Assembly: GCA_963706575.1 (NCBI GenBank)
Contig: CAVPNL010000016.1
Location: 1-50,036, forward strand
Reading direction: 5' to 3'
DNA from: an uncultured delta proteobacterium
Lineage (GTDB): Bacteria > Desulfobacterota > Desulfobacteria > Desulfobacterales > JAHEIW01
Length of the DNA stretch: 50,036 nucleotides
Positions 42,001-48,000 of this stretch are shown here, piece after piece (the stretch's first letter is position 1; each line of letters starts with the position of its first letter). The position numbers were made by a program.

Positions 42001-45000
42001 CCATGCGCTATGCCCAATCCTCGAACCCCTTGGGTTTCCTTGAAATCGGACGCGATCTTTGATACGCTGAAGGTCTTGACAGGCGCAGGATTACTGATGA
42101 CTATTTTATCATTCAGGTTAACGAATTAAACCAATCGAACCAATTAAACCGATGTAACGTTTGAAACTTAAACTGGACTCTGTACCTGGCAACTTAACTT
42201 GGTTTTCCCTATCATTGAAGGAAAACAGACTGTGACGGTTAAATCCAAAGCCCTTGAAATCAATCTGGCCGACTATCATGTTGATGTCGACATAGATGAA
42301 AAATATGCCATCCTTCAGGAAGTGATGTCTAAATATTACGGCCTGATGGAAGGGTTGAACACCTTCCTGAAAGAGCTCTCCCATCCCTATAAAAATTGGC
42401 GCTTTATTGTGACGGAAACCCGGAAATATTCTCTCGAATATTTTCATCTGATTAAAAACCATCCCAAAGGACCGACCGCGGCAAATCTTTTTAGCGGTAT
42501 ATTCTTTGATGCGGTGGAGTCGGATGTTGAAATGGCTGTGAAGGTCGATGCCATTGATAACCTGCAGCTGTTTTTGCAGAAAGTCGTAAAGGAATCCGAC
42601 TCAAATCTGGAGACATTTTTACCGTTTATCAACAGTGCCCTTTTGCGAATTGCCAATTTGCCCGACGATCATTTTGCCCTCTTTACCCGCAGCTATTATC
42701 AAATCAATCGGCTGGCTGAGACCTTTCTAAACTGCGCGCCTAAAACCGATGGTGTTTTTAATGCCATCAACCGGCTGCTAATGAAATTTTATAACTTTAC
42801 CTATGATTATTGGCTGGCAGAAAGTGATCCCCAAGCATGGTTTGAAGCGGAAGTTTCTGAAATTAAGTCGCAAAACGAATACGGGGAGTTTTTTAAGTTC
42901 ATTTCCCATTCGCAGCTGCAAAACTGGAAGCACCAGCTGGATCGGATTGCAAACGCAAAAAAGCAAAAATCCGACAAAGTACTGGCCTTACTACTGGCGC
43001 TTCCCGGATATAGCCAGATTGTAGATGCCTACCGCCGGATCCCTGCCGGTCTGCTAAAAAGCGGGAACGAAAATGGTCGCGGACGGCATCTGAAGCTCAT
43101 TTTCCTGTTTCAAATCATGAATGTTGCCGGGCTTTCGCTGATCCACGAGGAAACCCTAAGGGAGATTAACCAGACCCTGGGCTGGATCATTGAAAATGAA
43201 AATTACCGCCACATCCAAAACCTGATCCAGAAGACATTTTCTATTTTAAAAGAGCGCGCCAGTATGTACCCGGCCACGGCCCTTAATTGTGTGCTGAATA
43301 TGGGCAAAGGCGTTTATAAAACCGATGATATCGACCTCATTAATTATTTTATCGATTCGGTCATCGATTTGGGTTTTGCCGCGCCCAATATTCGAGGTGT
43401 GGACAATAACTGGCAGATACAGGTGAACAAAACCCACATCTTAAATATTCGGACCTGGCTGGAGTTGATCGAATTAGATCCAAAACGGTCCACCCGCTTG
43501 CTATCAGCCCTGATCATCCATCTGTCCCTTTACGGTGTGTTTATCAAGGATATTGATCTTTTTCCGCGTGACATTACCCAATTTTTAAACAGTGGCATCA
43601 GTTCCGTATTTAACCTTGCCAAACAGCTGACACGACTGTTTCCGGTATATTTCAATGATATTGGTGCCGAGGGCAAGCTGCGGGATATATCCACGCGCAT
43701 TGATGAGATTACCCAGCGCCACGATATTCTAATCCATTTTTTAAGAAAGCAAAGCCACGTGGAAAGCAGCAACCGCATCATCGATCTGATGGCGGCGGTC
43801 CTTTATTTCTGGCAAACACGAGATAAGACCCGCCTTTCGCCCCATTTGCCGCCGGTGATTTATGATCAGATCGATACGCAAGGACCTTACATCGATGGCG
43901 TTTTTCAAATTATGGCACAATTAAGGCAAAAGGGGATTCGCGATCCGAATGATCTAATTGCAGTTAGCGAAAAAAACGTCAAACAATGGCTGGCGACAAT
44001 TAAAGGTGTGCCCGACTCGGATGTTCAGCGCGTTGAGCTGGCGGCTGTCTTTTACAAGATTTTGAACGAGAAATATAATTTCGATTTAATTGAGCAGGAT
44101 GCTTTCCTGGCCCAGCTCAGAACCGGGGCGTTGCCGGATTTGAACCGGTTGGAGCAGGCGTTTGCAGAATCTGATTTGCATAAACGACTTTTTCTGCTGC
44201 TTGAATATATGGAGAAACTACAGGCGGTTATTCTGTCTGATGAATCCTTTGAAATCCGACAGGATATTTATAAAAAAAGACATATTACCATCGATATACC
44301 GTCGATGTACGGCAGTTATCATGAAATGAAGTTTGACTGTCTGGGGCTTTCCTTTCGAATCGAGTCTCTGGTCAATGTTCATTTTGAGGAGCTCATTGAG
44401 GATATTGATCTCAGCCTGATTACCAAAGCCACTTTTCACCAAATTTACAGTTTGCTGAGGCTTTTTGACAGAGCATTGAAACTGGACGGAATTTCATCGA
44501 AAGAATTCGAACGCCAGCTCGAATTTCTGGCCCATTCTCTGGAAGTCAAAGGCTTCACGTTAACCCAATACCTGGATATTTTTAAAGGATTTGCCCAGGC
44601 CGTTAAGAACATCGTCAATGATTATTTTAATAACATTCATGGGCAGAACCTGACCCGGATTTTAGCCCAGACGCCGCCCGATGCGCTGCAGCCAAAATTT
44701 TTGACGAGTGAGGAAGCCATTGACAGCGAAAAACAGCAGCATCGGGTTTCGGAGATCTTTTTCCGCGACCGCATTGCGCTGAGCCTGGGGCTGCAACAGC
44801 TCGATTTGTTCTTAAGTCGGATTTTAAGCACCCTTTTTCAACAGTCCTACAAATTACCCAAAGACAAGCTCCAGCGGCTGCTTCTTTATGATCCGCAGAA
44901 TGCCATAACGCCGATTGACTCATCCTTAGCGCGCTTAACCGGAATCATATACCTGGGCAATAAAGGGCTCAACATGGTGCGGCTGAAAAGTTTCGGGTAT

Positions 45001-48000
45001 CCGGTGCCGCCGGGTTTTATCATCACCACCGAAGTGTTTCGCTGTCGGGAAATCATTCAAAGCTACCCGCCGGCCGAGCAAAATTTTAGGGGAAAAATTT
45101 TACAAAATATTTCGACACTGGAAAAAGCCACCGGTAAAGTTTTCGGTGACAGCCAAAACCCGTTACTGCTTTCGGTGCGCAGCGGCTCCGCTATATCCCA
45201 GCCCGGGATGATGGATACCCTGCTGGACGTCGGTAACAATGAAGAAATTACAGAAGGCATCGCCAAACAAACGGGCAATGCCTGGTTTGCCTGGGACAAT
45301 TACCGCCGGTTTTTGCAATGTTACGGGATGGCTTTTGGCTTGAAGCGCGATGATTTCGATGCGATTATCAGTGAGTCCAAACAACGGCTGGGAATCCCGC
45401 TGAAAAAAGAATTTACCGGAGATCAAATGCGCGAGGTTGCGCTGACCTATAAAGACCTGATTCACGATGCCGGCATCGAGGTGGCTGAAAGCCCCTATGA
45501 GCAGCTGCACCTGGCCATCAAGGCGGTTCTGACCTCCTGGGAATCACCAAGGGCCATGGCATATCGTCGGATTATGGGAATATCAGAGGACTGGGGCACG
45601 GCCGTTACCGTTCAGTCTATGGTCTATGGCAATATATCCCAGCAGTCAGGCAGCGGTGTTGTCTTTACGCACAACCCTCGGTGGTCCGGCGATACCCTTA
45701 AACTCTGGGGGGATTTTACCATCGGCAACCAGGGAGAAGATGTTGTCTCCGGATTGGTAAGTACCATGCCGATTTCGATTTTCCAGCAAGAAATTGAAAT
45801 GCGGGAAACCGACGTCACCTTGGAGACCCATTTTCCGGAGATTTATCGGGCCTTAAAAGATTGGGCTCATGAGCTGATTGATGGAAGGGGGTGGAGTCCG
45901 CAGGAAATTGAGTTTACCTTCGAAGGGCCCTCACGTGATGATTTGTATTTGCTCCAAACACGCGATATGGCCATTCGGGAACGCAAAGCGGTGCTGACCT
46001 TCGATTTTGAGGAAGATCCCCAGGCCTTGTATCTGGGACACGGTGTCGGCGTCAGTGGCGGTGCCATGAGCGGTCGTCTGGTATTTACCCTTGAAGAGAT
46101 CGAAGAATGGCGCCTCATGGATCCCGGTACGCATTTGATTCTGGCCCGCAACGACACCGTACCGGATGATATTCAGGAAATTCATGCCGCCGATGGGTTA
46201 TTGACCGCCCGGGGCGGGCTCACCTCTCATGCAGCGGTTATTGCGCATCGGCTGGGAAAAACCTGTGTGGTGAACTGTACCAATTTGGATTGCAATGAAA
46301 AGGAAAAGTATTGCGAATTTAATCAATTAAGAATTAGATCCGGGGAGCACATCAGCATCGACGGCCACGAGGGTTCGGTTTATCAGGGTTTGACCAAAGT
46401 TACAGAAACCAGGAAAGGAGCAAAATAGGCATGGGCAAAGACAGGTTACATTCAGACGGTAACAGGTTGGGTGTAAACGGGTTTGGCCGGATTGGCAAAC
46501 TGACACTCTGGCACCATGTCGGACGCAAATATTTCGATGAAATAATTGTCAATATCGGACGACAGCCGGGATCATGCCTCGAAGACATTGCCCATTATGT
46601 TGAACGGGATTCAACTTACGGTTGGCTGCACGGTTATCTTCACGGACATACAGCTGAACCGGTGATCAGCGATCTGGATGAGGAAAACGGATCGATGGTT
46701 ATTGATGGCGTCAAGGTGAGCTTTCTGCGATCACAGCGGAATCCGGCTGAAATTGGATGGGGCGATCAGGGCGTTCAGCTGGTCGTCGATACCACCGGTC
46801 AGTTTCTGGATCCGACGCTCGAACCGACTCAAACCGGGGGCGCCCTCAGGGGTCATTTAGAGGCCGGTGCTGAAAAAGTAATTGTTTCTGCCCCGTTTAA
46901 GTTTAAAGACAAGGGCACGGCTGTGCCCGAAGATGCGGTGACCACCGTGATGGGAATTAATGAAACCGACTATGACGCCAGGCGTCATAAAGTCATTTCA
47001 AATGCTTCTTGCACGACAACCTGTCTGGCGCATATGGTGAAACCCTTGATTAATGCCTTCGGTCCTAAAAAGATCATGTCGGCATCCATGGCCACCGTTC
47101 ATGCTGCCACCGGGTCGCAAGAGGTGCTGGATCGGCTTCCGAAAACCGGAAAAGTCGATCTTCGAAAAAACAGAAGCATTTTGAACAATATCATTCTAAC
47201 CACCACCGGCGCCGCCAATACATTGAGATTGGTAATTCCGGAAATGGAAGAAATCGCCTTCATTGCTGAATCCGTCCGAATCCCGGTTCAGACCGGATCA
47301 TTGATCATCCTGGTGATTAACCTTCAGGAAGAGCCGAGTGGCCCATTTATCACCCGGGATGACATCAATGCCATATTTGAGCAGGCGGCTGCAGAGAACG
47401 CCCATGGCTACCTTTACTTTACGAACAAACAGAATGTTTCCTGCGATATTATCGGCATTCCGCGGGTTGCCGCTACAATTGAAGGGCACGAAACCCACAC
47501 TCGGACGGCAGAGGCCACGATTGATCTGAAAAAAGTACCAGGTCTGGAAAAGGAAGCTATGGCCAATCTCCATCAGTCAATTATCCGGGTGCCGGTCACC
47601 CAGGCCGTTATCTATGGCTGGTATGATAATGAAATGGGAAGTTATGTGAATATGCTGGGGGATCGTACGGTATCCATTGCAGAGGATATGTAGGGGGGCT
47701 ATCTGAAGAATATCCCTTTCAGTCACCCGAGCGGACCGATTGGGGAGATTAACCATTACAATCAGGAGTAATGGAGTGCTGGAGCATATAATATTTCGGA
47801 TTGCAGATTGCAGATTTCGGATTTAACTGCGCAGAATGCCTGATATTACAATCTGCAATCCGCAATCTAAAATCCGCAATTTATTTTCTCCATCACTCCG
47901 GCATCTTGTGGCTTCTGAGTTAAACGACCTGAACAGCCACTCATTGGGCCGACAGAGTGAACGGTTTGAACCGTTATTCCGCAAATCCGTAATGAAAGAT

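Follow-up and report, generated by a model that had tools for sequence, protein, structure and literature searches.

What does a protein built from the parts of pyruvate,phosphate dikinase (PPDK) phosphorylate when the pyruvate domain is absent? The question is raised by a stretch of 50,036 nucleotides from an uncultured delta proteobacterium of the Desulfobacterales (hereafter the window), in which a barrel-less dikinase of 1,398 aa is encoded on the forward strand at 42232..46428, with a helical N-terminal part followed by an ATP-grasp domain and then a His swivel. The ORF starts with a GTG codon preceded by a GAAGGA site, and 1,398 aa is also the length of the close homologues. In the Pfam scan, whose coordinates were renumbered from a 1,409-aa version of the ORF, PPDK_N matched residues 908-1252 (E 4e-31) and PEP-utilizers residues 1302-1381 (E 3e-17); the scan gave no family for residues 1-907 and no PEP-utilizers_C, the PF02896 barrel. 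The PPDK-type ATP-grasp domain (44953..45987, forward strand) has K911, R983, G1142, E1227, Q1242 and R1244 in 76/76 rows. The C-terminal phospho-His swivel domain (46135..46374, forward strand) carries T1325-x-x-G-G-x-T1331-S-H1333, with H1333 in the motif ARGGLTSHA and its codon at 46228-46230; the general form T/S-x-x-G-G-x-x-x-H and Thr1331 were each found in all 76 rows, and the motif is of the type described in PMC12167813. Regulation through this threonine by a PDRP/PSRP protein was rejected, as PF03618 was found in 0/5 genomes. Pfam domains, catalytic residues and H1333 thus bear out the intact phospho-His dikinase module that the genome-wide survey's note had read here. Behind the swivel His only 40-91 residues follow in 105/105 aligned members, which leaves no room for a barrel.

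We compared this module with the known dikinases. Its ATP-grasp and His swivel align with PPDK (EC 2.7.9.1; Clostridium symbiosum 1kbl; TIGR01828) over about 485 residues, and equivalents are present for K22, R92, G254, E323, Q335, R337, T453 and H455, positions with functional roles in PPDK. The role of K22 is also given in PMC4844700. Unlike PPDK, the protein has no PEP/pyruvate barrel, possesses about 895 additional N-terminal residues and carries its His domain at the C-terminus on a single short linker. The survey's statement that it is not a PPDK holds, since the barrel domain was not found and the TIGR01828 score (410 bits) is below the cut-off of 843; a separate 951-aa ORF on contig C4 of the same genome groups with canonical PPDKs. 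NCBIfam PRK05878, a barrel-less PPDK family, also joins ATP-grasp and His domain in a short model of 534 positions, but the dikinase scores 320 bits against a cut-off of 456 and the model lacks the 895-residue N-part. In a quick tree the ATP-grasp is sister to PPDK, with five PEPS or RPH-like rows separate; the sequence match is E 3e-95 to PPDK 1kbl versus E 2e-18 to PEPS, PEPS-type scores are 79-89 bits, and the domain does not qualify as a PEPS-type ATP-grasp. From this position, a reaction releasing AMP and PPi is expected, and the intact PPDK residues strongly imply that ATP, Pi and His1333 give His~P, AMP and PPi.

Given that ATP-grasp and His domains are nearest to PPDK, the protein might still be a PEP-forming pyruvate dikinase, with a stand-alone barrel in trans or a pyruvate site of unrelated origin; it might also take the place of PTS enzyme I with ATP as the driver. 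In genus g22, four genomes (one of them closed) fit this in that they have the dikinase and neither a PF02896 barrel nor an ATP-PEPCK match. We nevertheless consider it highly improbable. A barrel match occurs in 76/80 genomes. With the exception of a handful of short or interrupted frames, the ORFs that hold the listed matches are as long as enzyme I, PEPS or PPDK. Each of the ten f36 genomes has just one barrel, within an ORF of about 820 aa that carries a PEPS-type N-domain in the four checked, and in the g22 genomes PPDK_N also occurs in further proteins, about 890 aa long. As an enzyme I it would lack the barrel, and HPr was found in 0/5 genomes by a search that recovers just 7/14 controls. 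This explanation also leaves unaccounted for the tie to two residues of the neighbouring GAPDH, described below.

The likely acceptor site lies in the N-terminal part, where the survey's claim of a family-less region is confirmed: about 895 residues have no family or fold match. Its description as an alpha-solenoid applies to a portion only. Repeat-like fold matches span residues of about 345-470 and weak designed-repeat matches residues of about 13-380, largely within a variable helical, repeat-like region (residues 1-431; 42232..43524, forward strand) with a short conserved N-terminal motif (A7, N11, E48, H51) and H402; the conserved core (residues 432-725; 43525..44406, forward strand) combines, in the models, a beta-hairpin and short strands with a Gly-rich loop, and residues 726-895 (44407..44916, forward strand; E841, R845, D858) form a four-helix bundle. 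The core is the likely acceptor site. Invariant in 76/76 rows are D440, the loop G478-A-E480-G481 ahead of a helix (with A479 in 73/76), R484, D491, R505, K506, H509, E511, K614, Y615, the hairpin K682-R683-H684, S691, Y696, E698 and R709. Among 103 rows of the N-part, 48 positions are at least 95% conserved and 24 of these are charged or His; together with the Gly-rich loop before a helix, in models of pLDDT 87.6 and 86.7, this conservation resembles that of a pocket which binds a small anion bearing phosphate.

Fold searches used residues 345-725 and 432-892. Foldseek gave no match at E <=0.001 with either; the best VIA Z values were 8.7, for a short repeat-like part, and 10.1, for generic matches to the four-helix bundle. 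The N-part is a candidate for a new fold and not a proven one, because residues 1-344 lie outside the models and the core was never the part matched. A Pfam scan of 80 core sequences gave no consistent family (the best one in 13/80, E 0.004), and a protein atlas search returned only the family's own clusters, all under 0.9, and then nothing usable.

An exchanged acceptor domain is known from other dikinases. Rifampin phosphotransferase, PigC/HapC, phenylphosphate synthase and HpeHI are described in PMC4844700 and PMC12167813 as dikinases of the swivel-His type in which the acceptor domain has been exchanged and the His domain is at the C-terminus, features that our protein shares. In the same sources, RPH, PigC, PpsAB and HpeHI have the order ATP-grasp, acceptor, His; the grasp motif of the phenolic kinases is PEPS-like, and Met occupies the regulatory Thr position in the RPH-type enzymes (these last two points from PMC12167813). 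Here, instead, the acceptor comes first, ahead of a PPDK-like ATP-grasp and the His domain, and Thr1331 is kept. The RIF-binding fold, the acceptor of the RPH type, was not among the fold matches listed for the N-part. Glucan water dikinase GWD1 is likewise a large enzyme whose acceptor domain is all-helical, precedes the catalytic module and has no clear PDB equivalent (PMC13553574). Unlike our protein, however, GWD has two carbohydrate-binding modules and a His-then-ATP order, and its ATP domain is nearer to that of RPH; no GWD appeared among the sequence and fold matches listed for the N-part, in libraries whose inclusion of 9HA9 and 9QVI was not confirmed.

The second gene of the pair encodes a long GAPDH paralog of 420 aa (46431..47693, forward strand), beginning 2 nt past the dikinase stop. 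It had been called divergent, which is correct for its sequence and not for its orientation, as both genes lie on the same strand. C194, H224, S193, T195, T227, T259 and R283 are intact; equivalents of Cys149, His176, Ser148, Thr150, Thr179, Thr208 and Arg231 were found in 124/124 long-GAPDH rows, and the Gly209 position is Gly in 107 rows and Asn in 17. Among the residues kept are those that bind the C3 phosphate and Pi. The protein carries insertions, scores 321 bits against TIGR01534 (below the cut-off of 367) and is just 30-36% identical to the host's ordinary GAPDHs; clusters of the partner GAPDH number more than 7,000. Two closed genomes, G027 and G065, have no PF02800 match other than the long paralog, which must therefore be the working GAPDH there. 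In 124/124 rows the Asp32 position is replaced by x-G43-R44, from which the enzyme is probably NADPH-using or NADPH-preferring. Bacillus GapB is a gluconeogenic GAPDH paralog. In Pseudomonas putida, GapA and GapB are divided by flux direction (PMC12663938), and the Asp32 of GAPDH binds the 2'-OH of NAD (PMC3728087). Like those two systems, the locus would belong to a set of GAPDH paralogs divided by flux direction, and the long one has lost Asp32; unlike them, the long GAPDH has a dikinase partner and an arm with a His-x-Arg motif. To our knowledge, neither feature accompanies GapA/GapB of P. putida or GapB of Bacillus.

How constant is the pairing? The dikinase family is present in 117/151 genomes of the order, in agreement with the 32 of 41 reported earlier for the N-part; at 117/151 it is common but not core, and it is not order-specific as had been supposed, since it occurs in 88/301 genomes of the phylum and also in Nitrospirota, Magnetococcales, Acidobacteriota, Bacteroidales, Cloacimonadota, Bacillota, Methylomirabilota and Thermoleophilia. 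Of the 301 phylum genomes, the two genes occur together in 84 and are both missing from 210; 4 have just the N-part and 3 just the long GAPDH. A GAPDH lies within 6 kb of the dikinase in 70/87 loci, and the order gap, dikinase, long gap, pgk, tpi recurs. The GAPDH is a dedicated partner but not an obligatory one: 16 Bacteroidales genomes have the dikinase but yielded no long GAPDH. Of 40 key residues checked in these 16 dikinases, 39 are present in 16/16 rows and R407 in 15; only 8 mostly conservative shifts (e.g. P417) were seen. For 12 of the 16, an ordinary GAPDH of the Asp32 type, lacking His-x-Arg, is encoded no more than 6 kb away. The dikinase is dispensable in some lineages, being lost in G297, which keeps the long GAPDH (dS 0.40 to G098), and split by a frameshift in G065. 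No plasmid match was found. The family is inherited with a special GAPDH, which suggests that central sugar metabolism has a step or switch not described so far.

A link between the two proteins is the motif His356-Thr-Arg358-Thr with the following arm of about 30 residues (47496..47597, forward strand), which is tied to the presence of the dikinase. His356 and Arg358 are kept in 121/121 long-GAPDH rows from dikinase genomes and in 0/3 from genomes without it (absence re-tested), while the catalytic residues are retained; of 94 positions at least 97% conserved in the long GAPDH, only these two are changed in all three orphans, and only these two in G297. A further 120/120 database proteins keep His-x-Arg. 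One explanation is a protein-histidine dikinase, in which His1333~P would pass its phosphate to His356 with Arg358 steadying the phospho-His, the large helical N-part serving as a protein-binding cradle and the reversible balance of ATP+Pi to AMP+PPi toggling GAPDH as an energy-charge sensor. The spacing of the two residues equals that of HPr H15/R17, the swivel domain is homologous to its PTS enzyme I counterpart, and a His phosphotransfer from HPr to an enzyme has been proposed for glycogen phosphorylase (PMC13324651). However, the dikinase is fully conserved in the 16 Bacteroidales genomes without a long GAPDH found, and ten GAPDH-family sequences from five of these, closed G304 included, have no His-x-Arg at that strand; the orphans are a sample of three, and the changes in G297 are compatible with drift after partner loss. 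We judge this explanation unlikely, and give no greater weight to the full proposal of a PPi-forming protein-histidine kinase made from PPDK parts, driven by ATP and Pi and targeting an HPr-like His-x-Arg site grafted onto GAPDH. If true, gluconeogenic flux would respond to the AMP/PPi balance itself, with no need of PEP, HPr or a two-component kinase, and a new type of protein-histidine kinase would be added. Such a role may also exist alongside production of 1,3-bisphosphoglycerate (1,3-BPG).

The explanation that we tentatively favour, at a little under an even chance, is a 3-phosphoglycerate,phosphate dikinase (ATP+Pi+3-PG = 1,3-BPG+AMP+PPi) docked on the probably NADPH-using GAPDH and driving gluconeogenesis at low energy charge. 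The swivel domain would bring the phosphate of His1333 to the conserved basic pocket (residues 400-860) and transfer it to the carboxylate of 3-phosphoglycerate, yielding 1,3-BPG; the long GAPDH would dock on the dikinase via its His356-x-Arg358 hairpin arm and reduce 1,3-BPG to glyceraldehyde-3-phosphate ahead of the PGK back-reaction. Two phosphoanhydride bonds would be spent, pushing the hardest gluconeogenic step at a low ATP/ADP ratio; the reaction is expected to be reversible, and sugar-using members could make ATP from AMP and PPi. When standard energies are combined with the adenylate ratios reported for Syntrophus (PMC4992975, Table 4; energy charge of S. aciditrophicus 0.24), the computed 1,3-BPG per 3-PG is 200- to 9,000-fold higher with the dikinase than with PGK. 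Conservation of the dikinase in the Bacteroidales genomes where no long GAPDH was found is easier to reconcile with a common metabolite than with a single protein site.

Several observations weigh against a 3-phosphoglycerate dikinase. Free 1,3-BPG would cycle via PGK (net ADP+Pi to AMP+PPi) unless channelled or regulated, the N-part is tied to 3-PG by no structure or family, about 890 helical residues are large for a three-carbon substrate, and the dikinase has been dispensed with in G297 and G065. In split operons, pgk is often the gene that stays with the long GAPDH (G013, G266, G089, G121, G152, G182, G212, G239, G291). Plain docking would not predict that dikinases without a long GAPDH have lost no invariant acidic partner of His356/Arg358. 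A complex prediction of dikinase residues 345-895 with the long GAPDH monomer scored 0.00; its controls were not folded, and it counts neither way.

The same pocket conservation and GAPDH linkage would suit a dikinase that acts at the triose-phosphate node on some other small molecule, such as 4-phosphoerythronate, glyceraldehyde, or a phosphoglycerate whose hydroxyl would be phosphorylated to make a bisphosphoglycerate effector that binds at His356/Arg358. This would account for the constant retention of PGK and for His356/Arg358 without an invariant acidic partner, and swivel-His dikinases have many different acceptors (PMC4844700, PMC12167813). On the other hand, no third gene recurs with the pair beyond gap/pgk/tpi and the acs cluster, and the long GAPDH retains the residues that bind the C3 phosphate and Pi; we rate it as unlikely, slightly below the protein-histidine dikinase. 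NAD as acceptor, or replacement of NAD kinase, is improbable as NAD kinase is present in 5/5 genomes. PGK was found in 80/80 and 5/5 genomes (six of the 80 with a divergent or partial match only), so the dikinase is not a PGK replacement; an enolase bypass was rejected with enolase in 78/80.

As to transcription, the 2-nt gap and a ribosome-binding site within the upstream gene suggest that dikinase and long GAPDH are co-transcribed, as the survey had stated outright. Public RNA runs matched just small shares of words; RNA-library contigs of relatives extend over the dikinase and the GAPDH gene, one of them across the junction (run X3, 46332-46796), which shows neither a single transcript nor expression. 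Promoter matches are at chance level (12 observed vs 10.4), and no shared upstream motif was seen by eye in 10 close upstream regions. Upstream, and outside the unit, acsE closes the CODH/ACS cluster (40873..41799, forward strand); 432 nt separate its end from the dikinase and contain a terminator-like hairpin (41833..41867, forward strand; 16 pairs and a T tail, a pattern match only). The reported link to acs is commoner in the order than the 4 of 20 loci first given (11/16), and was not seen among loci fetched from outside it.

In the literature searched, covering main texts with most subscription journals and supplements outside its scope, no description of this family was found, and "phosphoglycerate dikinase" had a single match, a rice proteomics paper; the dikinase is apparently an unstudied large enzyme of many anaerobic bacteria. 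The step from 3-PG to glyceraldehyde-3-phosphate is regarded as fixed, PGK plus GAPDH. A 3-phosphoglycerate dikinase would be a new central carbon reaction, would explain gluconeogenesis of sulfate reducers and syntrophs at very low energy charge, and would be a tool with which engineers could pull this step; the pair His356/Arg358 offers a precise mutational target. Sources name the dikinase PPDK or "PEP/pyruvate-binding domain protein" and, because so common a gene carries PPDK-type names, PPDK counts in metabolic models are inflated.

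The dikinase gene (42232-46428, plus strand) encodes 1,398 residues, and 2 nt behind it an ORF on the same strand (46431-47693) encodes a GAPDH-like protein of 420 residues, hereafter the long GAPDH, whose purine-rich ribosome-binding site lies inside the end of the dikinase gene. In a Pfam scan the dikinase carries PPDK_N at residues 908-1252, PEP-utilizers at 1302-1381 and no further domain; its TIGR01828 score is 410, against a cut-off of 843. Since only 40-91 residues stand behind the catalytic His column in 105/105 aligned members, the family has no room for the PEP/pyruvate barrel (PF02896). 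The C-terminal 508 residues align with C. symbiosum PPDK at E 3e-95 and with PEP synthase (PEPS) at E 2e-18. A quick tree built from 51 ATP-grasp domains places the family in a single clade (SH-aLRT 94) whose sister group is the 15 PPDKs, with five PEPS or rifampin phosphotransferase (RPH)-like rows standing apart; the tool gives a warning of long branches at this junction. K911, R983, G1142, E1227, Q1242, R1244, T1331 and H1333 are kept in 76/76 dikinase rows. The dikinase would run ATP + Pi -> AMP + PPi via a phospho-His intermediate, and its motif and regulatory Thr match the T/S-x-x-G-G-x-x-x-H pattern with regulatory Thr described for PPDK, PEPS and enzyme I (PMC12167813).

The N-part, the ~895 residues ahead of the ATP-grasp domain, is present in 117 of 151 Desulfobacterales genomes, 88 of 301 Desulfobacterota genomes and 18 of 201 genomes of a Bacteroidales sample. 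Named records among the best 80 of 598 stretches, 24 of these 80 being ordinary PPDKs matched through the C-part, add Nitrospirota, Magnetococcales, Acidobacteriota, Bacteroidales, Cloacimonadota, Bacillota, Methylomirabilota and Thermoleophilia. The long GAPDH, called at E 1e-75 or better, occurs in 87 of the same 301 genomes: 84 have both genes, 210 neither, four the N-part alone (two fragments and two distant 1,500-aa variants) and three the GAPDH alone, counts that carry no P value, as the genomes include kin and are not independent. The distant variants (L032:4182-8720, 1,513 aa, and L033:5810-10438, 1,543 aa) retain H402, R505, H509, K614 and Y615, have a changed swivel motif and KRH, and adjoin a GAF/sigma-54 activator gene; no long GAPDH was found in their genomes, and they are possibly repurposed for signalling.

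In a non-random sample of 87 loci, some GAPDH lies within 6 kb of the dikinase in 70; of the 72 loci with enough flank, 41 have the long GAPDH immediately 3' and co-directional, and in three it is convergent. The order rapZ, gap, dikinase, long gap, pgk, tpi is recurrent. Among 16 Desulfobacterales loci picked for long contigs the long GAPDH always adjoins the dikinase, and acsE lies at most 3.6 kb upstream in 11, often with a DUF3786 gene in between; acsE is upstream in 6 of 78 wider loci.

In the long GAPDH, S193, C194, T195, H224, T227, T259 and R283 are intact in 124/124 rows (122 distinct). In G027 and G065, both closed genomes, Gp_dh_C matches no other protein, and the short paralog of the relatives G098 and G297 is changed behind the catalytic Cys and in the Thr-Gly Pi site, which indicates that the long paralog is a working GAPDH. 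The position of Asp32, a residue that binds the NAD 2'-hydroxyl and has to swing away for NADPH (PMC3728087), reads x-G-R in 124/124 rows, and because of this replacement a preference for NADP(H) is likely. Asn replaces Gly260 in the Pi site of 17/124 long GAPDHs (e.g. L067, L044, L212-L221); most of these have F-N ahead of His356, and many are encoded convergently to the dikinase gene. The short GAPDH encoded ahead of the dikinase is drifting in a number of lineages, with Pi-site changes, yet kept (L035:12699-13700, L138:6593-7591, L081:894-1931, L275-L277), and might serve as structural subunit in a mixed tetramer. In the present genome a tandem gap-gap-pgk lies at C4:486143-489568, in which the first GAPDH has changes at the Thr-Gly Pi site and in the residues behind the catalytic Cys.

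In the long paralog, E351 is followed by x-x-x-x-H356-T-R358-T, behind which an arm of 23-52 residues extends. This strand is an edge strand of the catalytic-domain sheet, remote from the active site. Of the rows whose genome or locus carries the dikinase, 121/121 have H356 and R358, and His-x-Arg also stands in another 120/120 database proteins; both residues are changed in the three rows from dikinase-less genomes (Y, H in G297; Y, A in G267; E, T in G106), where a profile re-test confirmed absence of the dikinase core. Among the 94 positions with at least 97% conservation, these are the only two altered in all three genomes and the only two altered in G297. The arm is shortened to 13 residues in G297 and 6 in G106. 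In G297 a remnant of the first 70-90 dikinase codons sits between two gap genes, and its long GAPDH differs from that of G098 by dS 0.40 and dN 0.038; drift after loss of the partner would be enough to explain its changes. Presence with the dikinase and change without it argue that H356 and R358 serve the dikinase, as dock, phospho-acceptor or ligand site. The strongest rival explanation starts here: a protein-histidine dikinase, transferring phosphate from His to His onto GAPDH, would explain the tie best, and the spacing equals that of HPr H15/R17 (PMC13324651), but it fails on the following Bacteroidales unless a second target exists, and we consider it rather unlikely.

In 16 Bacteroidales genomes with the dikinase, of which only G304 is a single closed chromosome and the others are of undemonstrated completeness, no long-GAPDH match was found; G330, G377 and G318 likewise gave none, though these are small or fragmented at the locus. 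The four of the 16 that are in the tree nest among partner-bearing members (support 84 and 95), which suggests secondary loss of the long GAPDH. Of 40 key dikinase residues checked, 39 are kept in 16/16 rows and R407 in 15; the gene is head-to-head with an ordinary Asp32-type GAPDH in ten and at most 6 kb from it in two more, and ten GAPDH-family sequences from five of these genomes have no His-x-Arg at that strand. A fully kept dikinase near an ordinary GAPDH thus argues that the conserved site is independent of His356, with the gene still tied to GAPDH.

Replacement of PGK by the dikinase is ruled out, PGK being kept in 5/5 Bacteroidales and in 80/80 genomes (77 of the 83 double-positive Desulfobacterota other than the present one, plus the three with long GAPDH alone). 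Enolase is found in 78 of these 80 and the PEP/pyruvate barrel in 76; NAD kinase is present in 5/5 genomes, and neither HPr nor PDRP was found in 5/5. Beside these counts, a role with pyruvate or in the PTS appears very improbable. G013, G089, G182 and G239 (one closed) have PPDK_N proteins of ~890 aa and neither a PF02896 barrel nor an ATP-PEPCK match. A divergent second PGK type (~270 bits, frames of 441-500 aa) occurs in G249, G267, G161, G273, G074, G300, G298, G130 and G163, and is the sole PGK found in five of these nine, which are drafts.

The reading fitting most facts, among them the observed domain content, residue conservation, linkage and His356/Arg358 tie, is a 3-phosphoglycerate,phosphate dikinase; we propose it tentatively, at slightly less than an even chance, the acceptor being guessed from context. 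His~P would form from ATP + Pi, with release of AMP + PPi, and the phosphate would pass onto 3-PG, giving 1,3-BPG. Given the presence of PGK, the product would have to be handed straight to the long GAPDH, and this need gives the arm a job, with His356/Arg358 as a putative dock; the long GAPDH would then reduce the product with NADPH. That another triose-node compound is the acceptor seems improbable. We take the standard energy to be about +6 to +9 kJ/mol for the dikinase reaction, against +19 for PGK. With these values, adenylate ratios borrowed from S. aciditrophicus (ATP 0.36, ADP 0.89, AMP 2.11; PMC4992975 Table 4) and an assumed PPi/Pi of 0.1 to 0.01, the dikinase is computed to sustain 200- to 9,000-fold more 1,3-BPG per 3-PG than PGK.

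Conservation of the N-part is concentrated at residues 400-515, 610-615, 675-710 and 840-860; in 103 rows, two distant variants excluded, 48 positions are at least 95% conserved, including 6 Arg, 3 Lys, 4 His, 6 Glu and 5 Asp. Confident predicted models (345-725, pLDDT 87.6; 432-892, pLDDT 86.7) consist of helices and short strands, with a G-A-E-G loop into helix 482-493 and a hairpin bearing K682-R683-H684, and the conserved residues would cluster into one pocket. Resemblance to known shapes is confined to the flanks, with repeat-like helices ahead of ~470 and a four-helix bundle beyond 726. A parallel is glucan water dikinase GWD1, with an all-helical acceptor domain without PDB equivalent (PMC13553574); no sign of kinship between it and the N-part was found. 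The dikinase works like PPDK, RPH and GWD but is a member of none of them. No description of the family was found in the literature searched; one of the two loci listed as PPDK in the Desulfotignum phosphitoxidans genome paper (PMC4046663) might be this protein. The dikinase probably catalyses an undescribed step.

In the window, a terminator-like hairpin lies behind the acs cluster, whose end is at 41799. Besides an ORF grouping with canonical PPDK, the same genome encodes PGK, enolase, a PEPS-like ORF and three further members of the GAPDH family. Contig C21 (22219-33001) repeats 39265-50036 at 97.6% identity with many indels, including 40 gap openings within the first 2.3 kb of the dikinase, and is probably a second strain or assembly noise; the first 12.4 kb of the window recur on contig C17, and duplication by strains is the likely source of both, the bin having 6.4% contamination. 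Near 35500 a frameshift, probably an assembly indel, splits the CO dehydrogenase catalytic gene (34942-36997) into frames of 201 and 618 aa; its paralog on contig C15 is one uninterrupted frame. AcsD (33297-34862) has an Ala/Lys/Glu-rich C-terminal tail of ~180 residues, and intergenic repeats that occur many times over on other contigs are dispersed at 2570-2740, 16295-16439, 21267-21581, 22455-22630 and 30785-30924.
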